The position numbers and the translations under genes are program-made. Below are positions 103-54,700 of a DNA stretch of 64,000 nucleotides, one piece after another. The notes below the pieces were generated by a model. That model saw only the letters and a list, made by a program, of their open reading frames with translations, ran no database searches and was not told the origin of the DNA. The DNA is from Armatimonadota bacterium. GTDB taxonomy: Bacteria; Armatimonadota; SYMT01. Location of the stretch: positions 64,001 through 128,000 of the forward strand of contig JBKBRF010000012.1 in NCBI GenBank assembly GCA_046292385.1, read 5' to 3'. Position 1 is the first letter of the stretch, and every line of letters starts with the position of its first letter.

Positions 103-356
103 TGCGACCCGTCCTCGCGTCGGCGGATTATGCCACGTGGCATAACTCCACCCTCTGCTGACCAGATCGGCCGGAAGTGCTGCGCGCCGCGGTAGCGGCG
201 GACCGTGGTCTCGATCGCGCTCACCAGCCACTCCGCATCCTCTTCGCTCAGCCCCTCGACCCCGGCCATGTCCGGGCAGTCGCGCAGCGGCCGCATCCGG
301 ATCCGCAGCTCGAGCCACCGCCGGCGGAAGAGATCCGCACCAGATTGTTCCGGCAT
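99..356 (-). CDS. Hypothetical protein
   Basis: Tightly coupled between the ImmA-like gene and the integrase start; contains palindrome copy 1. Confidence 0.6.
   Translation of the reverse strand: MPEQSGADLFRRRWLELRIRMRPLRDCPDMAGVEGLSEEDAEWLVSAIETTVRRYRGAQHFRPIWSAEGGVMPRGIIRRREDGSQ
128..145. repeat. 18-bp palindrome TTATGCCACGTGGCATAA, copy 1
   Basis: Exact match, about 25 bp upstream of the integrase start. Confidence 0.97.
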
Positions 357-359
357 GGC

Positions 360-1187
360 TCACCTCCGCGCCCCGTAGACGGTGCTGCCGAGCCACTGCC
401 CGGCAGCCACCTGCGCCTGTTCCGCGGCCGCCGCGAGGTCGACCTCGACTCGCTGCAGGCCCGAGCACTGGAAGGGACGATGGCGGAGGTCGAACTCCTC
501 CACGGTGAGCGCCATCAGATCCCGGGCGAGTTGATGGGCGACCTGCTCGGCGTTCCGGCGGGTGACCGGAAAGTGGTAGAGGGGCTGGACGCTGCCGCGG
601 CTGGCGACGTAGACCAGCGGATCCTGGCCGGCCTGGTCGCACATCACGTGTCGGTGATGGTAGGCGCTCCACCGCGGCGCCGCGCTCAGATAGACCGGAG
701 CGTAATGGGCGACGGAGCGGACCCGCTTGTCGACAAACTCCACCTCGCACCCAGAGAGCTCGGCTAGGTCCCGCACGTGGCCCCGATAGGCGCGGACCAC
801 CCAGGAAGGCAGGAACCAGGCGCCGACGAATTCCGCCGCGCGCGCCTCGTCGATCATCCGCCACCGCTCCGCCAGGCGGAGCAGCTTCGGGTCGCCGTCC
901 GCTTCCTGGCGGAGGAGCTCTCCGATCCCGAGGCTCAGGAACAGGTGCCCCAGCTCGTGCAGGAGTGCGACACTCCAGCGCTCACCGTGCAGCCGCTCCG
1001 GCAGCGTGATTACCGCCGGCTTGTCCTTCCGGTGCACGATCCGGGGGCACTCGATCGGCTCGTGCCGAATCAGCACCGCCTGCCCCAACCACTCCACCAG
1101 CCGATCCAGGTCGTGATCCGTCGGCACGCCAGGGATCTGTAACGCCAGCCGAACTGCCTCCGCCCTTTCCTCCACCCAGTGAATCAT
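360..1187 (-). CDS. ImmA/IrrE-family zinc metallopeptidase (anti-repressor candidate)
   Basis: LLHELGH (HExxH) motif, downstream E-A-F helix, position between repressor and integrase. Confidence 0.8.
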   Translation of the reverse strand: MIHWVEERAEAVRLALQIPGVPTDHDLDRLVEWLGQAVLIRHEPIECPRIVHRKDKPAVITLPERLHGERWSVALLHELGHLFLSLGIGELLRQEADGDPKLLRLAERWRMIDEARAAEFVGAWFLPSWVVRAYRGHVRDLAELSGCEVEFVDKRVRSVAHYAPVYLSAAPRWSAYHHRHVMCDQAGQDPLVYVASRGSVQPLYHFPVTRRNAEQVAHQLARDLMALTVEEFDLRHRPFQCSGLQRVEVDLAAAAEQAQVAAGQWLGSTVYGARR

Positions 1188-1329
1188 CCGTATGTTCCCT
1201 CTCCATCGTATTCAAACTACTGTTTGCGTATACCATGGGCCGGCGAGGCCGTCCGTAGACGACGGGTGTACGAATGTGCCAATCGGGCTGAACGGTCGCG
1301 GAGCGACTGCGGAGAGGGTGGGGTGCAGT

Positions 1330-2217
1330 CTAGCGGACGGTGTAGGCGAAGTGCGAGAAGACGCCGTTCCCGCCCCCGAAACCGCCCCCACCACCAGCGG
1401 TGCGAAACGTGAGCCGATTCGGAGGGAGTAGAGTCAGGCTCTCGATGTGGCTGATGTCTTTGCCATCCGACGTTTTGCTGCCGGGCGGAAGCACGTGGAA
1501 GACCCGCGAGCCATTCCAGCCGTACACCGCATCGGCAGTGTGCCAGTAGGCATAACCGTTGTCCGCCAGGACCACTCCAGCGATGGAGTTGATGGTGTCG
1601 CCGAGGATCGGGATGGGCTCGCCGGTGCGGACTACCAGCTTGGTAGTCCGATCATTCGCAACGAACAGTGAGGTGCAGTCGGCCGTGCCGTTGAGGTCGA
1701 GATCGACCCGCGTCACGAAGGCCAGGTCACCGCGGCGGTTTCCCACCATCACGGAGGAAGCCCCGTTGTAGTACTGACCGCCGCCAGGCGCCGGAGTAAG
1801 CGCGCGAGCGAATTCGGAGAGGGTGCCGCCCATGCCGGGTCCAGGAGCGAGGCCGGACTCACCCTCGGGGCCTCTCGGCCCGGTGGGACCCTGCGGGCCT
1901 GCGGGGCCACGCTCGCCGACGGGACCTGCCGGACCGGTGGTGCCGGCTGGTCCTACGGGACCCTCGGGGCCGGCGGGACCGCGGAGTTCGGTGCGGATGC
2001 TGGACGCGAGATCGTCTGCGTGGATGCTGCCGTCCTGCACGTGCTGGGAGGTGACCCCGTTCGCGGCGAGGCTGATCTTGGCCTTCGGTCCGGAGCCGCC
2101 GCCCGAGAGACCGGCGCCGGCGATCACCTGCATCAGCGGTTTCCGACCTGGGCCGGCCACCGCAACCCCGCTGGCGACAAACAGCCCCGCCAGGAACCCC
2201 ACCGCTACCTTCCGCAT
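1330..2217 (-). CDS. Secreted collagen-like repeat protein
   Basis: N-terminal signal peptide, about 14 G-X-Y triplets (GPAGPEGPVGPAG...), beta-rich C-terminus with NRRGDLAF. Confidence 0.8.
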   Translation of the reverse strand: MRKVAVGFLAGLFVASGVAVAGPGRKPLMQVIAGAGLSGGGSGPKAKISLAANGVTSQHVQDGSIHADDLASSIRTELRGPAGPEGPVGPAGTTGPAGPVGERGPAGPQGPTGPRGPEGESGLAPGPGMGGTLSEFARALTPAPGGGQYYNGASSVMVGNRRGDLAFVTRVDLDLNGTADCTSLFVANDRTTKLVVRTGEPIPILGDTINSIAGVVLADNGYAYWHTADAVYGWNGSRVFHVLPPGSKTSDGKDISHIESLTLLPPNRLTFRTAGGGGGFGGGNGVFSHFAYTVR

Positions 2218-2234
2218 GGCCGCGTCCTCCCTTG

Positions 2235-8707: not shown

Positions 8708-9758
8708 CAAGACCGGCATCGAATGGACCGATGCCACGTGGAACCCGATCCGCGGCTGTACGCGGGTCTCCGAGGGCTGCCGGAACTGCTACGCGGAGCG
8801 GGTTGCCGGCCGCTTCAGCGGCCCCGGGCAGCCGTATGAAGGCCTCGCTCGGATGACCGCCTCCGGCCCGCGCTGGACCGGGGCGGTGTGCCTGGTGCCG
8901 GAGCACTTGGAGGATCCGATCCGTTGGCGAAAGCCGCGCCGGATCTTCGTCAACTCGATGAGCGACCTCTTCCACGAGGGGCTCGGCGACGCGGAGATCG
9001 CCCGGGTTTTCGAGGTGATCTGCCGCAGCCTGAAGGGCCGGCAGCCGCACGAGCGCCACACCTACCAGATCCTCACGAAGCGCGCCGAGAGGATGGAGCA
9101 GTGGTTCGAGTGGGCGGAGCGGAAGTATCCGGGCTGGTTCGGCTCTGACGGGCTGCTCGACCTCGGGGACGTGCAACTCGGGGTCTCGGTGGAGAGCCAG
9201 CAGACGGCAGAGGAGCGGATCCCACACCTGCTGCGGGTGCCGGTGCGGGTGCGATTCCTCTCCTGCGAACCTCTGCTCGGGCCGGTGGACCTCACTCTCG
9301 TGGACCATCTCTTCGGCTGGATCAACGCCCTCACCGGACAGACCTTTGACGGGGACAACGGCAACCCAGTCGGCTCGATTAGCGCCCGCGGTGTCGATTG
9401 GGTGATTGTCGGCGGCGAGAGTGGCCCCGGCGCGCGGCCGATGCATCCGGACTGGGCACGTACCCTGCGGGACCAGTGCCAGGCCGCCGGCGTGGCCTTC
9501 CATTTCAAGCAGTGGGGCGAGTGGAAGCCGATTTCGGAGATGCCCGAAGACGAGTACGACCCGCTCTATGAGCCGGCCCCGGCCCGCGATCCCGAAGCTA
9601 CGCGTCGGTGCCGCGTTGCCACTCGCGCGATCCAGTGGGACGGCGGCGATGGATACCAGTTGATCCAGGGGCACTGCGGCTACCTGACATTCCGCGTCGG
9701 CAAGAAGCGCGCGGGCCGCACCCTGGATGGGCGCACCTGGGATGAGTTCCCCGCGTGA
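8700..9758 (+). CDS. Phage Gp37/Gp68 (DUF5131) family protein
   Basis: TGIEWTDATWNPIRGCTRVSEGCRNCYA, RIFVNSMSDLFH, WVIVGGESG, FHFKQWG. Confidence 0.92.
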   Translation: MADKTGIEWTDATWNPIRGCTRVSEGCRNCYAERVAGRFSGPGQPYEGLARMTASGPRWTGAVCLVPEHLEDPIRWRKPRRIFVNSMSDLFHEGLGDAEIARVFEVICRSLKGRQPHERHTYQILTKRAERMEQWFEWAERKYPGWFGSDGLLDLGDVQLGVSVESQQTAEERIPHLLRVPVRVRFLSCEPLLGPVDLTLVDHLFGWINALTGQTFDGDNGNPVGSISARGVDWVIVGGESGPGARPMHPDWARTLRDQCQAAGVAFHFKQWGEWKPISEMPEDEYDPLYEPAPARDPEATRRCRVATRAIQWDGGDGYQLIQGHCGYLTFRVGKKRAGRTLDGRTWDEFPA

Positions 9759-11563
9759 GCTGGACCTGGTGCGTGGCCTGCACGCGGCCGTGCCCGGGGC
9801 GGGATCCGGATGGCTTCTGCTCTGACGTCGACCGCGCGGAGCTGGCCCGGCGGTCCAACTGGCTCCGGACCGGCCGGTACGAGGACCCGCAGCCGGAGCC
9901 ACCGCCACCCCCGCCCCGCTTTGTCCACCGGCACCTGCCGGAGTACGAGCGGATCGAGGTGCGGCTTGACGGCGAGGTGATGGAGCACGTGTGGTCGGCG
10001 ATCGCGGGCCCGGCCGATCCGGACTGGCGGAACTCCGGCCAGTGCAGCACCGTGCCGCCGGATGGGCGGCAGCGCTACTACCGGGGACACGTGGAGATTC
10101 GCTGGCGGGAGGAGCTAGCGAGAGACGAGGAGACGAGCGAGATGACGATGACGGTAGACCCGCCGGCCAGACTTGCCGGCGTTACGGTGAGAGCTCGGGT
10201 GGCCTGGACCGACCCCGACGGAACCGAGGCATGCGGCACCGTGGTGTCGGTGGATGATGGCGGCCTGGTGGTCAACAAGGATCGCATCGGCCAGACCCGC
10301 CTGCGGTGGAACACGGAGGGGCTGCGGCTGCTGGACGGCTCCGCCGAGACGGAGGCGCCGGCGGAAGGCGGAGTTATGCCACGTGGCATAATCACCGGCC
10401 CGACGCTGCTGCAGATCCAGGTAGGCCAGATCGAGCTCAATCCCCGCAACCCCCGCCAGGTGAGTGAGGCGGATGATGCCGCGGTGGCAGAGCTGGCGGA
10501 GGACATCAAGGCGCGGGGGCTGATCAATCCGATCACTGTCCGCGAGACGGGCGACGAGCACCGGCCTTACGAGGTGATCACGGGCGAGCGGCGCTATCGG
10601 GCCTGCCTGAAAGCGGGCTTGACGCAGGTGCTCTGCATCAATCGGGGCGCCATCCCCGCGGAGCAGGCGTTCGAGGAGACGCTCCGGGAAAACGCGCTGC
10701 GGCAGGACCTCAACCCGCTGGAAGAGGCGCGGGCGGTGGAGCAGGCTCTCGCCGAATTCCACTGGTCGCAGGAGAAGATCGGCACGCTCCTGGGCGGGAA
10801 GTCGCAGAGCTGGATCTCCCGGACGCGGGCCCTGCTGCGGCTGCCGGGAGAGGCGCAGGAGCTGATCAAGGGCGGCAAGCTCCTCCGGAGCATGGGCGAG
10901 GAGCTGCTCACGCTCGCGCAGTGGCCGAAGGACTTAGTCCGCGTCGCGCAGGTCGCCGCGGATGAGGAGTGGACCGCCGCGAAGCTCTCCGCGGAGGTCC
11001 GGGAGCGGCGCCGCCAGCTCGAGGCTCGCGACCAGCCGAAGCTGTTCGGCGGGGACGAGATCGCTCCCGCGGCCACCGCGCCGGCGCCGGTCGCGCCGGC
11101 TGGACCTACCAGCCTGCTCGCGGCCGCGGAGCGGGAGCTGGACGAAGTCGCCGGGCGGATTACGGAGATGGTCTACGCGGATGAGCCGGCCGCTCCCACC
11201 GCTCAGGGTGATAGCACCGGCGCAATCACTACGGCATCCCAACCGACCGCTCCCAGCGCCTCCGAAGCGCTCACCAGCAGCCCCGCGGAGCCGGAGCCGG
11301 AGACCACGCCCGAGACGAAGCCCAACGCGCTGAAGAGCGCTGAGGAGCTCGTCGCGGAGAAGCACGGGGCTGCGGTCCCCACCACCGTCGGCGCGGCCAC
11401 GCTCGATGCCCCCGTCGCGATGTGCATGGTGACGCAGGACTGCGTGACCTGGCTCCGCGGCGACGGCTTCAACGCCAAGGACTTCCTCTTCCGCCTCAAG
11501 TCGGCGGCCTACACCCGCGGCCTCTCCGCCGCGGAGATCCTCACCCAACTGGAGACAGCCTGA
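9755..11563 (+). CDS. parB: ParB/RepB/Spo0J-family protein of the PRTRC cassette, with long N- and C-terminal extensions
   Basis: NPRNPRQ, GLINPITVR, TGERRYRA (CTPase box), ENALRQDLNPLEEA, then HTH SQEKIGTLLGGKSQSWISR; the true start may be internal (e.g. 10142). Confidence 0.9.
   Translation: MSWTWCVACTRPCPGRDPDGFCSDVDRAELARRSNWLRTGRYEDPQPEPPPPPPRFVHRHLPEYERIEVRLDGEVMEHVWSAIAGPADPDWRNSGQCSTVPPDGRQRYYRGHVEIRWREELARDEETSEMTMTVDPPARLAGVTVRARVAWTDPDGTEACGTVVSVDDGGLVVNKDRIGQTRLRWNTEGLRLLDGSAETEAPAEGGVMPRGIITGPTLLQIQVGQIELNPRNPRQVSEADDAAVAELAEDIKARGLINPITVRETGDEHRPYEVITGERRYRACLKAGLTQVLCINRGAIPAEQAFEETLRENALRQDLNPLEEARAVEQALAEFHWSQEKIGTLLGGKSQSWISRTRALLRLPGEAQELIKGGKLLRSMGEELLTLAQWPKDLVRVAQVAADEEWTAAKLSAEVRERRRQLEARDQPKLFGGDEIAPAATAPAPVAPAGPTSLLAAAERELDEVAGRITEMVYADEPAAPTAQGDSTGAITTASQPTAPSASEALTSSPAEPEPETTPETKPNALKSAEELVAEKHGAAVPTTVGAATLDAPVAMCMVTQDCVTWLRGDGFNAKDFLFRLKSAAYTRGLSAAEILTQLETA
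10374..10391. repeat. 18-bp palindrome, copy 2 (inside the parB ORF)
   Basis: Exact match just before the ParB domain. Confidence 0.97.
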
Positions 11564-11754: not shown

Positions 11755-13152
11755 ATGCGCGAGTTCTTTCAAGGAAGCGATCGCGCGGGCCCGCAGCGGC
11801 GCCCCCGCCGCCGGCGGGACGGAGCTCGCGTTGGAAGTCGCCGCGGACGAGGGGGCGCTGAAGGTCGGGAGCTCTCTTCAGCAGCTCTGCTCTTCCAAGG
11901 CTGGGGCGAGGGTGGTGATCACACCACCTTCCTCCGCCCTCCCACCACCTCTGTAATCCTGCCGGGGCTGAGAGCGGACGTGCCGCTGGAGGTGGAAGTC
12001 TCCGGCTCAGAGCAGCAGCTTGCCATCTTCGCGGAGGTCCTCTTGGAAGAGGGGATCCTCCGCGAAGAGGACTGGCTCGGCACGCTGTGCGGCTCGATTC
12101 AGCACGGCCTGGTGCGGTGGGTGAACGTGGAACTGGGCTGCGAGCGGCTTCAGCACTTCGACGTGTCGCTAGCCTACACCGACGACATCGATGAGGCGCA
12201 GATGGACGATCCAGGCTGCTTCAACTTCACGGACTGGGGCTGGGTCGACAAGTTCGGTCAGAAGGATGAGACGACCGGCTGCTTCATCCTGACCTGCGCC
12301 ACCGGGCATTACTTCGACGTCGGCACCTGGGGCGCGGAAGTGTTCGTCGGGACCCAGATCTTGGCGCTCGAGCGGCTTTGCCCCGGTGCCGGCTGGAGCG
12401 TGTTCGCCCTGGTCCAGGAAGCGGTGGACCAGCAGTTCTTCGGCGCCACTCCCGTCTGGGGGGATCGCTTCTTGGAGTTCTGCGGCTACACCTTCGGCGA
12501 GGACGCCTCCACGGAGGCGGACGAGGACGGCGGAGACGATCCGGATGAGGGGCAACTGCGGAAGCGCGTGCGGATCGGGGCTGCCGGCGAAGGTTATGCC
12601 GCAGACCTGGAGGACGATCATTTGGCGGAGCTCACCCGTACTCGCTTCCGCCGGGCCTTCCCGGAGCAGTGCTTCAGCGCCACGTGGGATCCCAAGGTCG
12701 TGAAGAAGGCGCTTCGGCGCTGTCGCGGCGCCGGGGATGCATGCCTGCGGGAGACGCTGCAGACCGCGCTCGAGCTGGCGCAGCTCGGAGCGGAGCTCGA
12801 TCCCAAGCGGCCGCTTAACGAGTGGGGCTACTTCGCCCGGGATGGTGTGGAAGTGGTCAACTCGGTGACGGTGCGCTGGTCCGAGGACGACGAGCTGCCC
12901 CGACTGATCGACGACTACTTCGAGCACGCTCAGAACTGCTGCGGGCTCACCACCGAGATCTTCGTGCGCGGTTTCCAACTCGCCGCTCCGGAGACGATCC
13001 GAACCTGCGTGCGCGGTCTCGGCCAGGCGCTGCGGATCCTGGCGAAGACCGACCACCTACTCGAGCTGCTCCATCAGCCGACGCGCCTGGTCGGGATCCT
13101 GGCGGATCGTAAGGGCGAGTCTTGTCCCGAGGAGAGAAGCGAATGCGTGTAG
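11755..13152 (+). CDS. PRTRC system protein F-like
   Basis: Position between C and B; ILPGLRADVP, ALERLCPGAGWSV, RLIDDYFE; acidic. Confidence 0.7.
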   Translation: MREFFQGSDRAGPQRRPRRRRDGARVGSRRGRGGAEGRELSSAALLFQGWGEGGDHTTFLRPPTTSVILPGLRADVPLEVEVSGSEQQLAIFAEVLLEEGILREEDWLGTLCGSIQHGLVRWVNVELGCERLQHFDVSLAYTDDIDEAQMDDPGCFNFTDWGWVDKFGQKDETTGCFILTCATGHYFDVGTWGAEVFVGTQILALERLCPGAGWSVFALVQEAVDQQFFGATPVWGDRFLEFCGYTFGEDASTEADEDGGDDPDEGQLRKRVRIGAAGEGYAADLEDDHLAELTRTRFRRAFPEQCFSATWDPKVVKKALRRCRGAGDACLRETLQTALELAQLGAELDPKRPLNEWGYFARDGVEVVNSVTVRWSEDDELPRLIDDYFEHAQNCCGLTTEIFVRGFQLAAPETIRTCVRGLGQALRILAKTDHLLELLHQPTRLVGILADRKGESCPEERSECV

Positions 13153-13868
13153 AGGATATGACCACCGGCAGCCGTCCCTACTACCTGCGCCGCGCCGTGC
13201 TGTTGTACGAAGCGGAGAACGGCTCCGCCTTCGCCAGCGTGAACCCGGTCCGCCGCCGGAACAAGAAAGCGACGATCGGCGCCGGGCGTTGCCTCTCCCG
13301 GGATGCCTTGGCGGAGCTGAACCGGGAGCTTGCCGGCCTCCCGAGCCGGCGGGAGCTCCTGCCGCCGCACGTGCTGTTCGCCGACGGCTCGCGAACACTC
13401 TGGTACCGGCCGGCGCACCGGGCGCCGATCTTCTTCAACACCGGCAGCAAGAAGCTCGACTCCTTTTTCCGGGGCAAGCAGGTTCTCTATCCCCCGCTGC
13501 TGTTTCTGGCGATGCCCCAGAACCTGTATGCCTGGGGGCTCGGCTCCGATGACCGCCCGTCCGGGGAGACGCACCTCTACCGCGCGCCCTGCCTGAACCT
13601 CTACGGGGACGGGCACATGTGCGCGGGCACCTCGAAGTTGCCGCTGGAGGTCTCTACCGACGTGCGGCTCTTCGAGAAGGCGTTCTTCGACACTGCCTTC
13701 TCCCACAGCAACCTCGGCGGCCAGGAGCTCTGCCGTTACGCGGGTGGGCATGACGCGCTCTGGAAGGCGCTGGCGGACCCGGAAGTAACCCCCGACTGGC
13801 CGGCCTGGCTGGCGCCGCTCCGGGGCAAGAGCGGGCCGCTTACCGCGGCGGAGGTGCTCAACCGATGA
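13143..13868 (+). CDS. PRTRC system protein B (prokaryotic E2-like)
   Basis: LWYRPA.R..FF, YPPLLF, RP..ETHLYRAP..N.Y.DG..C.G, FF.TAFSH. Confidence 0.85.
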   Translation: MRVEDMTTGSRPYYLRRAVLLYEAENGSAFASVNPVRRRNKKATIGAGRCLSRDALAELNRELAGLPSRRELLPPHVLFADGSRTLWYRPAHRAPIFFNTGSKKLDSFFRGKQVLYPPLLFLAMPQNLYAWGLGSDDRPSGETHLYRAPCLNLYGDGHMCAGTSKLPLEVSTDVRLFEKAFFDTAFSHSNLGGQELCRYAGGHDALWKALADPEVTPDWPAWLAPLRGKSGPLTAAEVLNR

Positions 13869-14707
13869 GCGAGCACCGGATAGCCGCACGCCTCCTGGAG
13901 ACGGAGGTCACGATTCACCTGGCCGGCTGCGGCGGTAACGGCGCGCAGATGCTCTACCGTCTGGCCCGGATGGACCGCGCCATCCGCTCGCTGGGGCACC
14001 CGGCCGGGATCTACGTTCGGGCATTTGATCCGGACCTGGTGAGCGCGGCGAACCTCGGGCGCCAGCTCTTCACTCCGGATGACATCGGACGGAATAAGGC
14101 GGACGTGCTGGTACAACGCGTCAACCTGTTCCACGGGCTCTCCTGGGATGCGGAGCCGGAAGCCTACGGTGGCCAGGGCGAGACGTACGAGTCCGATTAC
14201 TTTGGTGCACGCACGTCGATGCGCCGGGCGTGCGACATCCTCATCACCTGCGTCGACTCCGCGAAGGCGCGGCGGGAGATCCATCACGGCATCACGCAGC
14301 ACCGGCGCGGGGCACAGCACACTCCGCTCTACTGGCTGGATCTGGGCAACACCCAATCCACCGGGCAGGTGGTTCTGGGTGAGCCGATCGACGCCGTCAA
14401 CGCCCAGGGCAGCCGACGCCCGCGGCTACCGACGGTGGTGGAAGTCTTCCCAGAGCTGCTGGATGAGACGATCCCGGAGGACAACCGCCCGAGTTGCTCG
14501 CTCGCGGAGGCGCTCGAGTCGCAGGACCTCTTCATTAATGACCTGATCGTCGGATGGGCCGGGCAGCTCCTCTGGGATCTCTTCCGCAAGGGCAAGATCA
14601 CCAAGCACGGAGCGTTCATCAACGCCGGTGACTATCTGGTAAGTCCGCTTCCCGTGCCGGCGCCGAATCCGGAGAAGCCGGCGCGGAAGACGAGGGCACG
14701 GCAATGA
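13865..14707 (+). CDS. PRTRC system ThiF-family (E1-like) protein
   Basis: GCGGNG, FDPDLVSAANLGRQLF..DIGRNKA, CVDSAKAR, YWLDLGN, PSCSLAEALESQDLFIN. Confidence 0.92.
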   Translation: MSEHRIAARLLETEVTIHLAGCGGNGAQMLYRLARMDRAIRSLGHPAGIYVRAFDPDLVSAANLGRQLFTPDDIGRNKADVLVQRVNLFHGLSWDAEPEAYGGQGETYESDYFGARTSMRRACDILITCVDSAKARREIHHGITQHRRGAQHTPLYWLDLGNTQSTGQVVLGEPIDAVNAQGSRRPRLPTVVEVFPELLDETIPEDNRPSCSLAEALESQDLFINDLIVGWAGQLLWDLFRKGKITKHGAFINAGDYLVSPLPVPAPNPEKPARKTRARQ

Positions 14708-14967
14708 GCGAGTTCGACCCCCTCAACCTCGACCTCTGGCAGGAGCTCTGCGAGTTCCTGGCGAGCCGTCCGCGGAAGTGTGCCTACGCCAGGTTCATTC
14801 CGAATCACCTGAGCCCGCTGGTATCGGCCGACGCCAAGTCGGCACGAGCCCAGGTCGGCCTGATCTTCTGGTCCACGGGCTGGGGCTGGCGTCTCCGGAA
14901 GAACTGGCAGGAGCGGCTGGACACGCTGCGGCGCGACGGGATCCCGGCGGAAGGCGGCACCCGATGA
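14704..14967 (+). CDS. Hypothetical protein
   Basis: ATGA coupling on both sides. Confidence 0.55.
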   Translation: MSEFDPLNLDLWQELCEFLASRPRKCAYARFIPNHLSPLVSADAKSARAQVGLIFWSTGWGWRLRKNWQERLDTLRRDGIPAEGGTR

Positions 14968-15620
14968 AGCAGACCCCGATCCTGATGAGCGCTTCGATGG
15001 TTCTCGCCACCCTGCAGGACCGGAAGAGACAGACGCGCCGGCCGATCTCTCCCGAGCCGCACCCCGGCATCCACAGCTTCATTCCGCTCTCTTCCGGGGT
15101 CTGGAAGCCGGCCTGGGGCAGTGCGATCCGGGAGAACCTCACGGAGCACAACGCCTGCCGGCGGTCGCGCTACGGCGTCCGCGGGGATCGCCTGTGGGTG
15201 AAGGAGACCTGGGCGGCCGCCAGCGAGTACGACGCCTACCCGCCGAGCCGGATCCCGCCGGAAGGTCGGCAGCGGATCTGGTACGCTGCCGGCGGCGGTC
15301 TCAAGCCGGAGTGGGTAGGGCGCACCCGTGCCTCAATTCACCTGCCTCGGTGGGCGTCCCGGCTGACGTTGGAGCTGACCGAGGACCCGCGGCCCGAGCG
15401 CCTCCAGGAGATCACCGAAGCCGAGGCGATCGCAGAGGGCTGCCCGGGTGAGAACTGTTACCGGCGCCCGGGAGTTGCTGGCCTGGTCACGGACGACGGG
15501 CTCCTCCCTGACGAGCAGTTTAGCCAGCTCTGGGAGACCCTCCACGGGAAGGGTGCGTGGAAGCTCAACCCGTGGGTGTGGGTGATCTCGTTCAAGCGGC
15601 TGGAGGCCCCCGGATGCTGA
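14964..15620 (+). CDS. ASCH/PUA-like phage protein
   Basis: PILM...MV.A...RK.QTRR, GDRLWVKETW, SIH.PRWASR.TLE, NPWVWVISF. Confidence 0.8.
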   Translation: MKQTPILMSASMVLATLQDRKRQTRRPISPEPHPGIHSFIPLSSGVWKPAWGSAIRENLTEHNACRRSRYGVRGDRLWVKETWAAASEYDAYPPSRIPPEGRQRIWYAAGGGLKPEWVGRTRASIHLPRWASRLTLELTEDPRPERLQEITEAEAIAEGCPGENCYRRPGVAGLVTDDGLLPDEQFSQLWETLHGKGAWKLNPWVWVISFKRLEAPGC

Positions 15621-16255
15621 ACGCCACCTTCCGCCCGCTGGCACAGTGGCCGGGAGCGCCGCGGACCGTCCGCCGTCACTCCCAGTTCCGTGCCGGCTAC
15701 GTCTCCACGCTGGACCTGCTCGAAGCGGAGCTCGACAAGCTCTCGGCCCGGGACATCATCATCCAGATCGCCGTGGATCGGAAGGACATCCGCAACGACG
15801 GCTGGCCACGCGCAGACGCGCGGCCGCGGCATCCGGGCGTGATCCTCAACTTCGTCTCCCGGAAGATCCCGTACCAGTTCGTCTGCGACACCTACCACGA
15901 CTGGCAGGACAACCTCCGCGCGATCGCTCTGACGCTGGAGGCGCTGCGGGCGATGGAGCGCTACGGCGCCACTCAGCACCGGGAGCAGTACAAGGGCTTC
16001 GCGCAGCTCCCGCCGGGCGAGGGCGCACCTCCGCCGCAGCCGGAGGCGATGACCACGGATGAAGCGGCGGAGCTGCTCGGCGAGCTGGGGGGATTCACCT
16101 TCGCCGCCGTGCTCGCCGACGCCGAGGTGGCGCGGATCGCCTGGCGGCGCGCGGCCGACAAGACCCACCCGGACAAGGGTGGTGACGGAGCGGAGTTTCT
16201 ACGCGCGCAGCGGGCCTGGGAGCTACTGCGCGCGCACCACGGAGAGAGCAGATGA
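15614..16255 (+). CDS. Phage protein with a C-terminal J-domain-like HPD motif
   Basis: WQDNLRAIALTLEALRAMERYG; THPDKGGD. Confidence 0.75.
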   Translation: MLNATFRPLAQWPGAPRTVRRHSQFRAGYVSTLDLLEAELDKLSARDIIIQIAVDRKDIRNDGWPRADARPRHPGVILNFVSRKIPYQFVCDTYHDWQDNLRAIALTLEALRAMERYGATQHREQYKGFAQLPPGEGAPPPQPEAMTTDEAAELLGELGGFTFAAVLADAEVARIAWRRAADKTHPDKGGDGAEFLRAQRAWELLRAHHGESR

Positions 16256-18030: not shown

Positions 18031-18038
18031 GCGGCAGC

Positions 18039-18068
18039 GGCAGGTTATGCCACGTGGCATAACCTGCC
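18039..18068. repeat. Palindrome copy 3 (core 18045-18062), extended to a perfect 30 bp
   Basis: GGCAGG-TTATGCCACGTGGCATAA-CCTGCC just after the pentapeptide gene stop. Confidence 0.97.
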
Positions 18069-25270: not shown

Positions 25271-25288
25271 TTATGCCACGTGGCATAA
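25271..25288. repeat. 18-bp palindrome, copy 4 (extends to 24 bp, 25268-25291)
   Basis: Intergenic, 16 bp before the packaging genes. Confidence 0.97.
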
Positions 25289-33272: not shown

Positions 33273-33290
33273 TTATGCCACGTGGCATAA
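33273..33290. repeat. 18-bp palindrome, copy 5, embedded in a larger hairpin (33264-33300)
   Basis: GGGGCCGGG-core-TTCCGGCCCC after the capsid stop. Confidence 0.97.
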
Positions 33291-47898: not shown

Positions 47899-47916
47899 TT
47901 ATGCCACGTGGCATAA
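47899..47916. repeat. 18-bp palindrome, copy 6
   Basis: 5 bp after the last tail gene stop, at the left edge of the cargo block. Confidence 0.97.
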
Positions 47917-48720: not shown

Positions 48721-48763
48721 CGGCTCGCTTCGGGAACGGAGTTCTCCCGCTCTCACCTGCTAA

Positions 48764-49546
48764 GTGTCAGGCGTGTTAGGAAGCTATCGCCCTCACCCAG
48801 AATTACATCCTTCGATTGAGGTCAGTACGCGCCGGTACGGATTTTTCATCGCGGCCGATAGTTCAAGCGCCCAGGAGGCACTCAAGGTACTAGAAGCACC
48901 TTACTCTGCCACTAGGGATTCACCCGACGGGCGAGGCAACCTCTTGATTGGCCTCCGGCGAAAACTAGAGCGGTTTCGGGAACCTGACCCTACGCCCGCA
49001 CCTCGCGAACCGCTGGGTGAAGAGGTCGCGGCACGCCTTCTGGATCTCGTCTATCGGTACGTGTCTCGGCGCGTCGTCAATCGAGAGGACGTGGCGGACC
49101 TCACGGGGGAGATCCTGCTCCACGTGACAGCCCAGTTCCCGAACTTCCGGGGTGAAGGCAGAATGGAAAGCTGGCTCTTTCGCATTGCCGAACGGAGGCT
49201 GTCACGGAGCCGGCGACGGATGCAGCGATGGGCATCCGTCGCGGTGGAGGCGCTCCTGCCGGAACACGAGGATACGGTGGCCGATCCGGCGGGCGAGGAT
49301 CCGGCCGCGATAGTGCAGCGCCGAGAGCGGATCTGTCATACCATCAGGGTGGTACAATCATTACCGCCCGACCAACGGGAAGCACTGTTGCTGATGTATG
49401 CAGAAGGTCTGTCGCAGGAGGAGATCGGCCAGGTGATGGGCCGCTCCACTGAGGCCGTCAACAGCCTGCTGCAGCGGGCGAGGAAGGCGGCTCGGAAGCT
49501 GGGTGGGAGTTACTACCTAACGGGGGAACCCGGAGGGCCTCGATGA
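48764..49546 (+). CDS. ECF sigma factor (start uncertain)
   Basis: VYRYV.RRV, FRGE....SWLFRIA, LPPDQREALLL.Y.EGLSQEEI..VMG. Confidence 0.88.
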   Translation: MSGVLGSYRPHPELHPSIEVSTRRYGFFIAADSSSAQEALKVLEAPYSATRDSPDGRGNLLIGLRRKLERFREPDPTPAPREPLGEEVAARLLDLVYRYVSRRVVNREDVADLTGEILLHVTAQFPNFRGEGRMESWLFRIAERRLSRSRRRMQRWASVAVEALLPEHEDTVADPAGEDPAAIVQRRERICHTIRVVQSLPPDQREALLLMYAEGLSQEEIGQVMGRSTEAVNSLLQRARKAARKLGGSYYLTGEPGGPR

Positions 49547-50391
49547 AGCACGAGGAGTCTCAACCCAGCGAGCGGCCGGACCGGGGAGCCCCCGGGGACC
49601 CGTGGGAGGCAGCGTTCGGCAATGCAGTCCGCGAAGCCTTTCCGGGTCGTTCCCCAGCCCCCGAAGAGAAGGCGCGGATTCTTCAGCGCGTGAGACAACG
49701 CGCCGCGCGTCGGTCCCAGCGCCGTGCCACCTGGCTCCCTCCGCTTCGCTTCCGGCTGTCCTTCGCTGCCGTCACCGCGCTGCTACTCATCCTCGCGTTC
49801 GTGGTGCTGCAGCCACGAGAAGTAGACGCTGGCTTGCTGGATCGCGTTGTAGCAGCGATGGCACAGTTCCGCTCCGGCCACCTGGTGTTTCTGCGGCTCA
49901 ACGACCAGGGCCAATGGGAGTACGAACGCCAGTTGTGGTACCGCGAAGGCTCCTGGCGGACAGAGATGGACGGGGATACCTGGATCTACACGCCCCGAGC
50001 GACCTGGCGACAGAAGCTGCCGGACCCACGCTGGGTGCGTCGTCCCGAGAAATCGAACTTCGGTCGTGACCTGAGTGGGTTAGCTCCCACCGTCCTGGGA
50101 GGCGACTTCGAGAAGTGGGGCCGGGAAACGCAAATCCGGTACCTAGAAGCTCCGGATGGTCCGCCCGGCTCCTTCCAGGTAGTCGTCGAGCCGGAAGGTG
50201 AGAAGGAGCGGATCCTGCTCGCCATCGATCAGGCCACGAGCGTCCCGCGCTACTTCGAATTCCACAGCCTGCGCGGAGGCCGGTGGCACATCACGCACCG
50301 CGTGCAGATCGAGCTCGGGCTGCCCTTGTCTCCCGCCCTATTCGCCCCGGGAGCTCCCGCTCCGGAGCAGTCCCCCGCACGCTTGGACTGA
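49543..50391 (+). CDS. Single-TM anti-sigma-like protein
   Basis: ATGA-coupled to the ECF gene; TM helix then a beta-rich extracytoplasmic domain. Confidence 0.65.
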   Translation: MKHEESQPSERPDRGAPGDPWEAAFGNAVREAFPGRSPAPEEKARILQRVRQRAARRSQRRATWLPPLRFRLSFAAVTALLLILAFVVLQPREVDAGLLDRVVAAMAQFRSGHLVFLRLNDQGQWEYERQLWYREGSWRTEMDGDTWIYTPRATWRQKLPDPRWVRRPEKSNFGRDLSGLAPTVLGGDFEKWGRETQIRYLEAPDGPPGSFQVVVEPEGEKERILLAIDQATSVPRYFEFHSLRGGRWHITHRVQIELGLPLSPALFAPGAPAPEQSPARLD

Positions 50392-50594
50392 TACCAGAAA
50401 CCAGGTCCCCTACCGCTCCTGCGGATCCCAGCCGGTCTTCGCCTCTACGGTGGCCGAGAACACGCCTACGATAGGTGTGCTCTCGGCCATCGTTGCTCAT
50501 GTCGGTGCCGAGCCGAGCGCCGCCAAGCTCGCACCAGCCCACTCCACTCCGCCTCCGGGTGGCCTACCTCACGGCCACCCGGAGGAGGAAACCG

Positions 50595-51170
50595 ATGGTT
50601 GTGGGTTCACCTGAGTGGCAGGTGGCACTGAGAGCTGCAAAGGATGGTTGTCGATACGGCGCCGAGCGTCTGGCGGCAGTTCTCCTGGTGTGGGCGTACC
50701 GAGAGCTTCGGAAAGGAAGCTGGCGGGAGCCTGAGGACATTGTGGGTGAGTTCGTGGCGAGGATGCTCCGCGAGCAGGCCCGGGATCTGCCGGATGGAGA
50801 TTGTCGACGCACGGAGGCCTACCTACGACGCGCGCTACGCAGGTTGCTCGTCGATCGCTGGCGAGAGCAGCGACGCTGGCGCGCGAATGAGTTGCTCCTC
50901 TCCGAGCTGTCGGCGGATGACGACTCGTCCTACCAACCCTGGACGATTGCCGAGGCCGATCCGCTCGACCAGGTTCTCCGCGCAGAGGAGCGTCAAACCC
51001 TCCAGCGAGCGCTGGAGCACCTGGCTGACCAGAACCGGATGCTGATCCGCTTGACCCTCGACGGCTGGACGCCGACGGAACTTGCCGGGCGGACCCGGTT
51101 GACGCCGAACACGGTCCGGCAGCGGCTCTGGTCGATCCGCCGCCAACTCCGACGTCTGCTCCAGGAGTAG
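50595..51170 (+). CDS. Second ECF sigma factor
   Basis: GGAGGAGG RBS; AYLRRALRR.LVDRWR; L....R.LI.L..DGW...ELA......NTVRQRL. Confidence 0.8.
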   Translation: MVVGSPEWQVALRAAKDGCRYGAERLAAVLLVWAYRELRKGSWREPEDIVGEFVARMLREQARDLPDGDCRRTEAYLRRALRRLLVDRWREQRRWRANELLLSELSADDDSSYQPWTIAEADPLDQVLRAEERQTLQRALEHLADQNRMLIRLTLDGWTPTELAGRTRLTPNTVRQRLWSIRRQLRRLLQE

Positions 51171-51310
51171 CGGCCGCGAGAGCTCGCGCCGGGGTAGCCG
51201 GAAAGGGCTCTCGGACAGAGCCTAACGCGGCCCCCTAAGGCTCCGTCTCTTCCCCCTGACGGTAGCCGCTTGGGAAACCTCCCGAGCGTTAGCTGACTGC
51301 CAGGGGGAAG

Positions 51311-52888
51311 ATGATGCAGACCGCGCGGAAGCGCAACACGACCAGGGCCCGATGGATCGGAGTGGAAGATGCGGTCCGCGTCGCCCTCGCCGGCGTGCTC
51401 CTCACCGCCGTCGTCGGGAAGCTCCTCGACTTCGACGGCTTTGTCCCGGTGGTGAACCGCCTGGAGCTGGTGCCCGCCACCTGGAGCGCGGCCGCCGCGG
51501 CACTCCTACTGGTCCTGGAAACCGTGGCCGCCACCCTGCTGCTGACCCGCAGCGCCGCGCTGGCGGGACCTCTACTCACCTTGCTCTTAGCTGGAGGCTT
51601 CACGCAGGTCACGCTTCGATTCCTGCTCGAAGGGCGGCCGAACACCTGTGGCTGCTTCGGGCTACTCCTGCAATTACCACCGCTCGCCGTGCTCCTGCTT
51701 GATCTCACTCTGGGGCTGGGGGCCTTCTTTCTGCTGCGAAAAGGGTGGCGCGCCCGCCGTGTGGCTCTCACTGCGCAGCCGGAGATCGGGAGTTCAGCAG
51801 GAGTCCCGTCGGGAGCTCCACTGAGTTCTTTCCGCTCCGGGACTCTTTGGTGCGGCTGCTATCTCCTGGTGATGGTCGCCGGGTTGCAGGCGGGCTTTCA
51901 CGCGCAGTGGCAGCATGCTGATGACGGCGAGACCCGGGAGATCAATCTCCGACTCGGCGATCGGGCGCCGCTGTTCCGTCTCCGAACGCTCGGCGGTCGA
52001 GTGATCACCCCGGCCTCTCTCGCCGGAGAACCGGCGCTCGTGGTGTTCGTCCAGGACGGCTGCACCCCCTGCGAAAGCGAGCTGCGGGAGTTGGCGACCC
52101 TCGCCTCCGAGTTGCGCGGCCACGTGCGCCCGCTGGTCGTGCTCACCGGTCGACCACTCTGGGGCAGTGCCGAAGCCGCGGCGCGCCGTTTCGCTCGCCG
52201 CCTCGCCCTTCCCTTCCCTGTGGCCTTGGATCCGGACCGCACGGCCCTAGGGCGTTACGCCGACCGCCCCGCGCGCACTCCCTTCAGTGTGCTGCTGAAC
52301 TCCGCGGGCCGCGTGAGCTATGTCCAGGATGGCCGTGAGAGCGGCGAGATGAGCCTGAAGCGGGATCTCCAGGCCCTCCTCGCTGATGAGCCGTATGGGG
52401 CGCCGGTTCTCGCCTCTCGTTCTCCGCACGTTGGCCGGCCCGCACCAGACGGGGTGCTCTCCGGCCCCGCCGGACCGGTGCGGCTCTCCACGCTCTGGCA
52501 GCAAGGCCCCCTGCTACTGACCTTCCTGCTCCCCGACTGCCCGGGTTGCCGAGAGCGGGTCGCGCTGCTAGAGCGTGCCGCCGGTGCCAACCAGGGTTTG
52601 CGGTCAATCTACGTCTACCCGAGTGCCGCGGCGGCGGCCGCCGCGCGAAGGAGGCTGCGGACTCAGGCAGTTGTGGCGAGCGATCCGAGCCGGGAGGTCC
52701 ACACTCGGTTCGCGGTGTGGAATGCCCCAACCTCCGTCCTAATCGAGCGCGGACGGATCCAGCTGGTCACCGGTGAGCGCGCCGGTGACCGGGAACTGCT
52801 GCGAGCTCTGCGCTCTGTGCCCTCGGCCGTGATCGGCCTTTCGACCACGGACCTCTCTGCCCGAAGGGCGAACGCGAAAGCCAGGTAA
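51311..52888 (+). CDS. MauE/DoxX-type membrane domain fused to two TlpA/AhpC-like thioredoxin domains
   Basis: TM helices with CGCFG; GDRAP.F.L..L.G...CTPC; G.PAPD..L...CPGC. Confidence 0.82.
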   Translation: MMQTARKRNTTRARWIGVEDAVRVALAGVLLTAVVGKLLDFDGFVPVVNRLELVPATWSAAAAALLLVLETVAATLLLTRSAALAGPLLTLLLAGGFTQVTLRFLLEGRPNTCGCFGLLLQLPPLAVLLLDLTLGLGAFFLLRKGWRARRVALTAQPEIGSSAGVPSGAPLSSFRSGTLWCGCYLLVMVAGLQAGFHAQWQHADDGETREINLRLGDRAPLFRLRTLGGRVITPASLAGEPALVVFVQDGCTPCESELRELATLASELRGHVRPLVVLTGRPLWGSAEAAARRFARRLALPFPVALDPDRTALGRYADRPARTPFSVLLNSAGRVSYVQDGRESGEMSLKRDLQALLADEPYGAPVLASRSPHVGRPAPDGVLSGPAGPVRLSTLWQQGPLLLTFLLPDCPGCRERVALLERAAGANQGLRSIYVYPSAAAAAAARRRLRTQAVVASDPSREVHTRFAVWNAPTSVLIERGRIQLVTGERAGDRELLRALRSVPSAVIGLSTTDLSARRANAKAR

Positions 52889-52892
52889 CTGA

Positions 52893-53282
52893 ATGCGAAA
52901 TCAATCCACTCTCCACTCCCGAGGCGAGCGCACGAGCCGTCCGTTACTGTGGCTCGTTCTCTCTCTCTTTCTCGCTGCCACCGGCCCCGGGACACTCGAG
53001 CTCGCCTGGGGGGATTCAGAAAACTACTGCCCGGGCTCTCCATGGAACTGCTATCCGCAGACCACCTGCGGAGAGCTGACGTGGTGCGAGACGACCGGCG
53101 GCGACTGGTGCAATACGACGTACGCCCACTACGCCAAGAAGAAGTACCTGATGGTGAAACGCTGCACGAATCTTTCCGGCGGAGAGCTCACCTGCACCTC
53201 TTGCGGCCCGAAGCAAGACAATGGCTGCTGTAAGGATCTGTCCGCAGAGCCGTCGTGCCCGAACGGGACACAGTGCCCGTAG
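52893..53282 (+). CDS. Secreted 12-Cys peptide
   Basis: Hydrophobic signal segment, then about 90 aa with 12 Cys and several Trp. Confidence 0.75.
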   Translation: MRNQSTLHSRGERTSRPLLWLVLSLFLAATGPGTLELAWGDSENYCPGSPWNCYPQTTCGELTWCETTGGDWCNTTYAHYAKKKYLMVKRCTNLSGGELTCTSCGPKQDNGCCKDLSAEPSCPNGTQCP

Positions 53283-53310
53283 CGGGAGACAGGCTGCACG
53301 GAGGCTTCTC

Positions 53311-54006
53311 ATGGTGTTCAAGTCGACTCTTCGTTGGATGTGTTCTCGGGAAACCCGGAGCGCCGCCCGGTCACGGCCCGGTTTTACCCTGCTGGAGGTG
53401 CTGGTCGTGTCGGGAGTCCTCCTGATTCTGTTGGGCCTATTGGTTCCCGTCGCCGCCAGCGCCCGCGCTCGCGCACAGGAAGGCGCATGCGCCGGGCAAC
53501 TTCGACAGATCGGAAAGGCTATGCGGCTCTATCTGGATGACCACGATGGGCTGCGGCCACCGCGGCTGACCGATCTGATCCCGAACCACTTGGCCGAGCG
53601 GCGCCTCCTGCAGTGCCCGCGAGATCCTTGGCTGGGCCGTGGCGGCTGGGCCTGGTCCGCCTGGGGACGCCTGACCACCCCACCCCAGCGGTGGCCGGCC
53701 CCTGTTTCTTACGGCTACTTCTGGAGCCCGCTCCCGCACGACCGCCTCTGGCGCGAGGCGCAACAGGCCCCGGGGCGACCCGGCTACCTCGTCTGCGTGC
53801 TGCATGGAGAGTCGGGCGAGAGCTCTCCTGACGGGGACGGAGAGGCGCCGTACTATCGCGGGCGCGTGCTGCGGCTCTGCTTCGACGGCAGTGTCGTCAC
53901 CCGCGAGTTCCCCGGCCGGGGCTTTAACGCCTGGCGGCTGATGACCGACCAGGCAGTTCCAGCGGCGCCACGTGCGGCCGGGACCAGGAGTGAGGGGATC
54001 AGATGA
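53311..54006 (+). CDS. Prepilin-type N-terminal cleavage/methylation domain protein
   Basis: GFTLLEVLVV...LL.P....AR..A....C...LRQIG.A..LY..D; CP.D; FDGSV. Confidence 0.88.
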   Translation: MVFKSTLRWMCSRETRSAARSRPGFTLLEVLVVSGVLLILLGLLVPVAASARARAQEGACAGQLRQIGKAMRLYLDDHDGLRPPRLTDLIPNHLAERRLLQCPRDPWLGRGGWAWSAWGRLTTPPQRWPAPVSYGYFWSPLPHDRLWREAQQAPGRPGYLVCVLHGESGESSPDGDGEAPYYRGRVLRLCFDGSVVTREFPGRGFNAWRLMTDQAVPAAPRAAGTRSEGIR

Positions 54007-54428
54007 CGACCGTACTACGAGTCGGGATGGGCTGCCTGCTGGGAGCGCTAGTGGGGATGGTGGGATTCGTGAGTGTGTCCGTGGTGTTCTTCGCGCTCGG
54101 GGTCTACTCCCATCACCAACTCACACTCGGCGCCGGCCTGGGTCTCATCTGGGGAGCGTTGGCAGGGCCCTGGAGTGTTTGGCGACGCCGCCCGCTTGCT
54201 CGGGGCGTGCTCGGGCCGGCGCTGGTGTCTGTCGGCGTCTTCACCGGGTATCTGCTTTGGCTGGGCTCGCAGCGCAGTGTCTTTACGTCCTGGGAGCAGT
54301 TCCGCAGCGGGCTTCTCGCGGGGAGCGCGTTCGTGCTCCTTGCGAGTGGGCTATCAGCGATGGCCTGCCTCCGGATCTGGGACTTACTCCCCTCGGACCT
54401 GGCGAACTCTTGGGAACCGCGAGGCTGA
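54003..54428 (+). CDS. Four-TM membrane protein
   Basis: ATGA coupling; four hydrophobic segments. Confidence 0.7.
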   Translation: MTTVLRVGMGCLLGALVGMVGFVSVSVVFFALGVYSHHQLTLGAGLGLIWGALAGPWSVWRRRPLARGVLGPALVSVGVFTGYLLWLGSQRSVFTSWEQFRSGLLAGSAFVLLASGLSAMACLRIWDLLPSDLANSWEPRG

Positions 54429-54682
54429 TCGTGACTCGAGGCCAGTCCAATACCTGGCGATGAGATCTCGGGCGGCGGGGACTGCTCCCCCGACTGGGCG
54501 CCGGCCACCGCTGATGTGCGGGCCGTACTCGAGGTGACGCTGTAATCGTGCGCCCGGACCGCTGAATCGTGCACCTGCCGCGCGATTCGGTGCACGATCC
54601 GCCGTACGAATGGCAGCGGCCCCGGCGGACACCCGGGGCCGCGATCGCGCCTCGTCACAAGCGCGGACAATACCCACGGCGA

Positions 54683-54700
54683 TTATGCCACGTGGCATAA
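54683..54700. repeat. 18-bp palindrome, copy 7
   Basis: 7 bp past the stop of the XRE-IrrE gene, at the right edge of the cargo block. Confidence 0.97.

Follow-up and report, generated by a model that had tools for sequence, protein, structure and literature searches.

Seven identical parS-like palindromes dispersed along an integrated prophage are probable docking sites of its orphan ParB

Results

The 64,000-nucleotide stretch of Armatimonadota DNA analyzed here (the window, that is, positions 64001-128000 of contig C12 in a 7.04-Mb assembly) harbors a tailed prophage that encodes its own ParB-family protein and along which seven exact copies of the 18-bp palindrome TTATGCCACGTGGCATAA are dispersed over 54.6 kb (Table 1). 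Two 55-bp direct repeats, together with a tyrosine integrase encoded beside the left one, just left of the window, indicate that the prophage is integrated in a tRNA-Leu gene, spans 59.8 kb, extending beyond the left end of the stretch shown, and encompasses all seven sites. In the left part of the prophage, the integrase and a cI-like helix-turn-helix (HTH) protein are followed by an early module that encodes, in this order, RecT, a DUF5131 protein, ParB, a PRTRC protein F-like protein, the E2-like PRTRC protein B, a ThiF-family protein, two conserved unknowns, and a pentapeptide-repeat protein. A split XerC-like recombinase separates the early module from the genes for packaging, head and tail, which precede a cargo block that includes the LuxR-type regulator and, last, an HTH-M78 protein.

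Table 1. Positions of the palindromes and associated genes in the window, and loci with the same palindrome in other genomes (ORF, open reading frame; MAG, metagenome-assembled genome)
Feature	Position	Strand	Description
Palindrome, copy 1	128..145		between lysogeny genes and integrase; overlaps the 3' end of a possible 86-codon minus-strand ORF, 102-359
Palindrome, copy 2	10374..10391		within the 602-codon ORF 9755-11563, ~10 codons ahead of the ParB_N domain; ATG 10376 in frame
Palindrome, copy 3	18045..18062		15 bp past the stop of the pentapeptide-repeat gene; within an inverted repeat with a 13-bp stem
Palindrome, copy 4	25271..25288		ends 17 bp upstream of the ATG (25305) of a metallopeptidase gene, the first of the packaging/head module
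Palindrome, copy 5	33273..33290		37 bp past the stop of the major capsid gene; within a ~16-bp stem
Palindrome, copy 6	47899..47916		6 bp past the last tail-module gene; adjoins the 3' end of a convergent LuxR-type gene
Palindrome, copy 7	54683..54700		8 bp beyond the stop of the minus-strand HTH-M78 (ImmA/IrrE-like) gene 54708-55802
cI-like HTH protein	2235-2624
ParB ORF	9755..11563	+	602 codons; 206-aa Cys-rich N-terminal part, ParB_N and HTH_ParB, Pro/Ala-rich tail with a small conserved end domain
PRTRC protein F-like	11755..13152	+	alpha-helical; TIGR03742 43.4 (cut-off 58.4); homologue on C45 59.6
PRTRC protein B (Prok-E2_D, E2-like)	13122..13868	+	TIGR03737 138.9 (cut-off 131.45); Prok-E2_D 88.4 bits
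PRTRC ThiF-family, E1-like	13865..14707	+	TIGR03736 290.4 (cut-off 144.75)
Two conserved phage genes after ThiF	14778..16255	+	phrog_874, phrog_9210; function unassigned; 70-90% identical on C45
LuxR-type regulator	47968-48756
attR	57952..58006	+	55-bp repeat of the 3' end of tRNA-Leu-CAA; right prophage end; attL at C12:62194-62248
Casimicrobium MAG	L209 9853-10439		array of four copies within 600 bp, immediately ahead of parA, a ParB-HTH gene and trfA
Competibacteraceae MAG	L210, L211		parA-parB operon with a copy 20 bp past the parB stop; on two contigs, a further three copies at intervals of 5-11 kb
Gammaproteobacterial MAG	L212		Rep3 initiator and parA-parB; a copy 8 bp past the parB stop, another beside rep
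Elusimicrobiota MAG			copy inside parB

All seven copies listed in a preliminary description of this DNA were recovered, each bordered, as that description had it, by two purines and two pyrimidines. Beyond these borders, the flanks of the seven copies are dissimilar, and the palindrome is therefore not a piece of a longer repeat unit. There are no further copies with up to three mismatches in the window and, again as first described, none in the host flank (window 58007-64000); the number expected by chance, from 100 dinucleotide shuffles, is 0. An equal frequency across the host chromosome would have marked the motif as a host repeat or regulator site, and the exact count over the whole assembly (7,043,135 bases in 91 contigs) is seven inside the prophage and none elsewhere. 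The palindrome, with its CACGTG centre, is AT-rich for a genome of 68% GC and is the sole palindrome with 6-nucleotide arms and at least three copies in the prophage. Five of the seven copies are intergenic, although a generous set of ORFs fills 88% of the prophage. The sites are also more evenly spaced than random, with gaps of 6784 to 14626 bp (for seven random points on 59.8 kb, the probability of a minimal gap of at least 6784 bp is 3.7e-4).

The reading frame of the ParB ORF is continuous through copy 2, and its product passes the profiles of the ParB family (PF02195, 61.5 bits with a cut-off of 26.3; PF17762, 53.8 and 22.6; TIGR00180, 110 and 58.45). The best solved relatives are the chromosomal ParBs 7bnk (6.7e-25), 1vz0, 6sdk and 6t1f, followed by Noc, the match to KorB (8qa8, 3.1e-8) being far weaker; the Noc profile TIGR04285 stays below its cut-off (112.9 vs 315). 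The GERRxRA and ENxxR boxes bind cytidine triphosphate (CTP) in the ParB family and are present here as GERRYRA and ENALRQDLNPLEEA. The GERRYRA box had been pointed out from the outset, as had KSQSWISR, which is part of the helix GKSQSWISRT. No ParA/CbiA/AAA_31 match was found with Pfam among 75 window ORFs, and no ParA on C12 or on the two other contigs that carry the motif (C45 and C37) in a tblastn search with three ParA queries, which bears out the earlier remark that no ParA is visible. By these profile and structure matches, the protein is a canonical, chromosomal-type orphan ParB. The ParA-contact motif (L/F/I)G(K/R)G(L/F/I) is absent, but the host ParB ORF lacks it too. As for close relatives, there is one 27% match in viral contigs, none in genomes, and one 38% match on a 1.9-kb metagenome contig; a search of 400 genomes of the phylum retrieved only chromosomal-type ParBs of 33-44% identity.

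The relaxed core of the palindrome, TATGCC-N4-GGCATA, occurs 13 times in the genome, seven times on C12 and three times each on C45 and C37, such that all occurrences fall within three prophage regions, as do five of the six core sites with one mismatch. For three control patterns of equal composition, the genome contains 0, 1 and 0 perfect matches. Contig C45 (57,346 bp; loci L012-L014) is a complete-looking second prophage that encodes RecT, a primase-polymerase, a helicase, ParB, the PRTRC proteins F and B and ThiF, along with its own structural genes. Its ParB is 53% identical to that of the window over 220 aa and carries the boxes GERRLRA and ENEFREQLSPIEQA. The C45 sites, 11-15 kb apart, have the centre variant TTATGCCGCGCGGCATAA (GCGC for ACGT), located at 18760, 42151 (as a 16-mer) and 56723; the copy at 30756 is a near match, and degenerate versions occur at 7762 and 8646. 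The start of the C45 parB is most likely the ATG at 18725, which overlaps the upstream stop, so that the copy at 18760 takes up codons 12-18. Thus, in both prophages the palindrome lies in the 5' part of parB, yet it is translated in different frames (MPRGII vs DYAARHN), which argues that conservation at this position acts at the DNA level. Selection on the peptide MPRGI (with the ATG in the palindrome and centres CCA CGT and CCG CGC) was considered and rejected because the C45 ParB uses another frame. Separately, ~250 bp (window 14704-14967 and C45:23022-23273) are nearly identical, with 94% identity of the protein, within PRTRC regions that are otherwise 40-50% identical, which suggests a recent exchange between the co-resident prophages.

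The third region, C37:40000-66665 (L015, L016), is a prophage with a Mu-like head that is cut by the contig end and has only two tail proteins in common with C45. Its perfect sites at 46748, 50194 and 64224 have the centres GTCC, ACGT and GCGC, respectively, and a one-mismatch copy lies at 49639. A small HTH protein of this prophage (L015:15925-16308) gives a sub-threshold match to KORA (19.9 vs 26.7 bits). A related structural module on a further contig, C40 (TerL 73% identical), comes without ParB and without the motif. Elsewhere in the assembly, degenerate motif-like palindromes were noticed at C1:315630-328447 (three sites with one or two mismatches within 13 kb) and on C79 (two GATGCC-N4-GGCATC, at 8532 and 16227); these clusters may be remnants of related elements. 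The canonical parS core was not found in the assembly. A sequence present three times, TTCCACGTGGAA (C42:24211, C42:29229 and C50:2686), resembles the Pseudomonas parS consensus quoted in PMC12409273 (available in part) and may be the host's own parS.

Outside this genome, in all five genomes or proviruses with at least two copies of the 16-bp core TATGCCACGTGGCATA, a ParB-family gene lies within 1 kb of a copy. Four of the species-representative genomes have at least two copies, and each of them has one at a ParB-family gene (the MAGs in Table 1). Judged by this gene context, the palindrome appears to serve as centromere in parA-parB modules of a plasmid- or chromid-like kind that carry TrfA or Rep3 initiators (L209, L210-L211 and L212). 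The IMG/VR database contains the 16-mer in nine stretches on seven contigs. One of these, IMGVR_UViG_3300032070_000779, is a 32-kb provirus (95% complete, 48% GC) whose three copies are separated by 14.4 and 9.7 kb, with the first one inside its 461-aa ParB gene; tblastn detected no homologues of the window PRTRC proteins in it, and no ParA was found among the 22 ORFs tested. A second provirus carries a single copy inside the gene of a ParB 52% identical to that of the window, and window PRTRC homologues were not found there either. Altogether, the palindrome stands beside parB in hosts of other phyla, and the same 16-mer is present in five phyla. Among 60 related genomes, nine contain one or two copies of the core and the rest none; it is absent from all six genomes of the same family.

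In five single-copy genomes the only ParB_N match lies elsewhere, and in four single-copy viral fragments there is no ParB_N match; the unlinked single copies look like chance matches. The looser pattern TTATGCC-N4-GGCATAA, when searched in viral contigs, occurs once per contig among the matches listed and was judged to be background. In PLSDB plasmids, no match to a palindrome-linked ParB from Proteobacteria exceeded 60% identity.

The preliminary description called for a test of covariation between the motif and the residues of the ParB HTH, and a residue signature was detected (residues are numbered as in Caulobacter ParB, and bases of the 14-bp core as in canonical parS). The half-site in the window reads A1 T2 G3 C4 C5 A6 C7. 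All eight palindrome-linked ParBs, which are 22-53% identical to the window ParB, have Gln173 together with a basic residue at position 178 (R, R, K, R, R, H, R and H), against R173/N178 in the host chromosomal ParB (GKSRSAVSN). The pattern could be parsed in 15 of 29 Armatimonadota ParB loci: 13 are R/N, two are Q/Y, and none combines Gln with a basic residue. The two Q/Y proteins (L039 and L050), in chromosomal context, have the helix GKSQSTIAY (Gln173, Tyr178) and may represent another specificity class. According to Jalal et al. 2020 (PMC7383237, in part), the conserved contacts are G170, K171, S172, N178 and R204; guanine 1 of parS is bonded by R173, adenine 1 by Q173, and base pair 6 lies opposite residue 201. 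Adenine 1 in the site and Gln173 in ParB thus constitute a Noc-type match to the published ParB/Noc code. The basic residue 178 would read G3/C4, where parS has T/T. The window and C45 ParBs share the helix GGKSQSWISRT and differ at positions 201/202 (S-M vs T-N), and base 6 is the only difference between their sites (A vs G); in these two cases, the paired differences would fit the code.

The site was originally proposed to belong to the PRTRC ParB. A cognate relationship between site and prophage ParB is indicated by the position in parB, the linkage in other phyla and the residue signature; the PRTRC half of the proposal did not hold, given that the protein is not a PRTRC-type ParB (TIGR03734, 65.3 against a cut-off of 278.6, with only profile positions 6-130 of 555 aligned). 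Among the ORFs 14704-14967, 14778-15620, 15557-16255 and 16252-16665, there is no NCBIfam match to PRTRC proteins A, C and E. Palindrome discovery in other PRTRC elements had also been suggested as a check. Two PRTRC phages, Burkholderia phage BgVeeders33 and Ralstonia phage Dina (the latter annotated with PRTRC E, C, F, B, A and ThiF), contain no ParB-like sequence and no palindrome with 6-nucleotide arms in at least three copies. Given that the ParB/site pair occurs without PRTRC homologues in the two proviruses, and in plasmid-like parABS modules, and that PRTRC phages occur without ParB or the palindrome, the site travels with ParB and not with PRTRC; what links the site to PRTRC is solely that the genes adjoin, in two prophages of one genome.

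Several other features of the prophage deserve mention. The XerC-like tyrosine recombinase is split over the overlapping frames 18745-19389 and 19316-19990, and its homologue at C3:36931-37824 is in a single frame; this is either a frameshift or an assembly error. In the cargo block (48764-54006), two sigma factors of the ECF type are accompanied by a likely anti-sigma partner; the block also encodes a MauE-AhpC/redoxin fusion (51311-52888) and a protein with a prepilin-type N-methylation motif that has many paralogues in the genome. In the lysogeny region, a collagen-triple-helix-repeat protein (window 1330-2217, minus strand) matches phage tail-fibre PHROGs over the repeat only. The 206-aa N-terminal part of the ParB ORF (window 9755-10375) starts with a Cys-rich motif, and its homologue on C45 is a separate 112-aa gene (C45:11180-11518), 7 kb upstream of parB; the arrangement reflects either a natural fusion or a ParB start at the internal ATG of the palindrome. 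Among public sequencing runs, the stretch is present only in a hot-spring metagenome, its likely source, and no RNA run is listed with it. Metagenome contigs over window 52000-62000 show no joints, and a contig break falls at the att repeat.

Discussion

The position of the palindrome at the 5' end of parB, kept in two diverged prophages, the presence of the core beside ParB genes in other phyla, and the recognition-residue signature all point to a cognate site, and we consider it very probable that the prophage ParB specifically binds the palindrome. That the seven palindromes are, as a whole, parS-type docking sites of this orphan ParB is somewhat less certain but is the explanation we favor as likely. 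By analogy with known ParBs, this protein, of a subclass characterized by Gln173 and a basic residue 178 that would read TATGCC-N4-GGCATA, would act as a CTP-gated clamp, loading at each site and sliding outward. The coverage by ParB beside a parS is typically 10-15 kb (PMC12409273, in part), and at intervals of 7-15 kb between sites, the entire 60-kb phage genome would come to be covered by clamps. Even spacing and the intergenic location of five of the seven sites fit such coverage; whether loading is CTP-gated and spreading spans the genome is, in our estimate, evenly balanced.

A number of observations weigh against this interpretation. The 35 stretches that contain TTATGCCRCGYGGCATAA in 596 Gb of species-representative genomes equal the computed chance number for a search space of that size, ParB-like sequence lies within 300 bp at 4 of 38 loci, and most single copies in public genomes are away from parB; the cross-genome argument therefore rests on the multi-copy cases. 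The protein itself departs from the better-known ParBs: the C-terminal dimerisation domain PF23552 was not detected by Pfam in the window ParB, although it is present in the L210 and L212 ParBs (the window and C45 ParBs have a different conserved C-terminal end in common), the residue aligned to the DNA-contacting R204 is Glu, as read from the alignment to solved structures, and the ORF carries the 206-aa N-terminal fusion. No sigma-70-like promoter was seen at site 4 in a promoter/terminator scan. Longer site-specific inverted repeats just after genes enclose sites 3 and 5 and, to a lesser degree, sites 1 and 4. Furthermore, no ParB was found in the visible 33 kb of the site-bearing C37 prophage; the rest of the assembly yielded only the two prophage ParBs, the chromosomal ParB and one unrelated ParB-like gene. 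Related phages that keep the motif but lack parB had been named in advance as evidence against the link; C37 is in part such a case, in that no parB was found over its visible 33 kb. The C37 sites could be served by ParB in trans, the C37 parB could be missing from the assembly, or the site could have another reader.

As to function, the integrated state of the element, the lack of a ParA and the placement of parB within the early recombination/replication module favor a role like those of KorB and BisD over plasmid partition. Most likely, by analogy, the ParB sites serve in the genome-wide organisation or control of phage DNA and transcription during development, plasmid partition being less likely. 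The neighboring PRTRC E1/E2-like genes may act together with ParB, as their adjacency would suggest. A more far-reaching scenario, which we consider improbable but worth spelling out, is that ParB clamps at the even sites form a platform for the adjacent E1/E2-like PRTRC enzymes, with ubiquitin-like tagging on, or directed by, ParB-coated phage DNA, the substrates being ParB itself or DNA-bound phage or host proteins. Under this scenario, the sites would also work between phages, such that the ParB-encoding neighbors would act in trans on the C37 prophage, in which no ParB was found, marking, silencing or exploiting it. If so, this would be the first cis element and mechanism for the uncharacterised PRTRC system.

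Among the alternatives, the one that survives best, even if we regard it as unlikely, is that the palindromes are true partition centromeres of a phage that is circular after excision or persists in a plasmid-like state, as N15 does, and employs an unlinked or host ParA-type ATPase. The same palindrome is indeed found in plasmid-like parABS modules with Rep3 or TrfA in Proteobacteria, and the SopB sites of N15 are four separate inverted repeats, IR1-4 (PMC7205306, in part). Against this stand the 55-bp att repeats and the integrase, which mark an integrated element, the failure to find a ParA on C12, C45 or C37, and the contig depth of the prophage, which is about equal to that of the flank (~60 vs 53-58), a weak measure taken from contigs only.

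Still less likely, in our view, is that the palindromes function primarily as RNA or single-strand hairpins at the ends of transcription units, as terminators without a U-tract, stabilisers of mRNA ends or processing sites, with the link to ParB being secondary. Four of the five intergenic copies are 6-37 bp past a stop codon, and the inverted repeats around sites 3 and 5 (window 18035-18072 and 33263-33300; -25.9 and -29.7 kcal/mol; z-scores -6.6 and -5.2) directly follow the pentapeptide and capsid genes and resemble terminator hairpins without a U-tract. However, structure alone would not need 18 identical bases seven times over or the same 16-mer beside parB in five phyla; two copies are within ORFs, no T-tract follows any copy, no terminator-like site was called at site 4 and no Rfam family was matched. 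The two roles are compatible, and given the stems past genes at sites 3 and 5, some of the docking sites may double as transcript-end hairpins.

It seems very unlikely that the palindromes are operators of another DNA-binding protein, be it the cI-like, LuxR-type or HTH-M78 regulator of the prophage (Table 1) or a host factor. Such a protein would explain the sites in the C37 prophage, in which no ParB was detected, and all three site-bearing prophages reside in one host; but no DNA-binding protein is common to C37 and the other two prophages (blastp, 1e-3), neither the remainder of the host chromosome nor any of the six same-family genomes contains the motif, and the neighbor shared outside this genome, in hosts of other phyla, is ParB. 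Finally, we give almost no credence to targets of restriction-modification or another DNA modification centred on CACGTG, kept or placed for self-marking, which the CACGTG-centred palindrome, AT-rich in a genome of 68% GC, might bring to mind, because CACGTG occurs 1865 times in the genome, the arms are conserved and the centre varies (ACGT, GCGC, GTCC), and Pfam detected no methylase or nuclease beside the sites among the window ORFs.

If the docking sites are what they seem, the implications are threefold. The pairing of Gln173 with adenine 1 and of a basic residue 178 with G3-C4 would add a simple, testable recognition rule to the specificity code that Jalal et al. set out for ParB and Noc. 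An orphan ParB would be found on integrated tailed prophages with even sites that could coat an entire 60-kb genome; in the available part of its text, a 2025 survey of the ParB fold (PMC12704722) places ~1% of ParB homologues on prophages and leaves their roles open, and a term search of that part yielded no mention of PRTRC, ThiF or ubiquitin. And the placement of such a ParB immediately ahead of an E1/E2-like PRTRC cassette, seen in two prophages, offers a concrete handle on an uncharacterised system: among the matches listed in our literature search there was no functional study of PRTRC, the reports being, by title, on annotation or transcriptomes. A full-text literature search with the 14-mer core gave no match.

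The closest functional parallel is the KorB/OB system of the IncP plasmid RK2. There are 12 OB sites on RK2, and KorB also serves partition together with IncC (ParA). As in the prophage, a ParB-family protein, in that case a CTPase clamp that acts at a distance, is paired with identical dispersed palindromes (PMC11790492, in part). The differences are that the window ParB is far nearer to chromosomal ParBs, that the element is an integrated tailed prophage and that the site sequence is another one; Pfam found no match in the window to a KorA-like clamp-locking partner (KORA domain). Phage N15 resembles our case in being a temperate phage whose ParB-type protein, SopB, uses several separate single palindromes, IR1-IR4 (PMC7205306, in part). 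N15 is an extrachromosomal plasmid prophage with SopA, in contrast to the tRNA-integrated prophage described here, which has seven even sites, an adjoining E1/E2-like cassette and no ParA. Ravin and Lane (1999) and Grigoriev and Lobocka (2001) are said to have reported that the N15 inverted repeats are spread over the genome. BisD of ICEclc is a ParB-like CTP clamp of an integrated element that uses parS-like palindromes (bisS), some of them intragenic, spreads over at least 50 kb and controls genes of the element with a partner protein (PMC12409273, in part). That system differs, as far as this text goes, by a fused activator domain, the partner BisC, an upstream ParA and two sites 2 kb apart, as opposed to seven dispersed sites on a phage with no ParA.

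With the chromosomal ParB-parS and Noc-NBS systems, the prophage pair shares the fold and domain order, a 16-18-bp palindrome and the C5-A6-C7/G-T-G centre, and Gln173 with adenine 1 is the Noc solution (PMC7383237, in part); it is set apart by G3/C4 in the site, a basic residue 178 in place of the conserved Asn, the lack of a ParA and the lack of origin-proximal clustering. The PRTRC cassettes of plasmids, islands and phages (NCBIfam TIGR03734-03742) are matched by a ThiF E1-like protein and protein B above the cut-offs beside a ParB gene; here, ParB is not of the PRTRC type, and proteins A, C and E were not detected in the ORFs scanned. Judged from sequence, this pair of ParB and site appears to be undescribed, and it belongs to a known theme, that of dispersed ParB sites on mobile elements, as exemplified by KorB, N15 and BisD.

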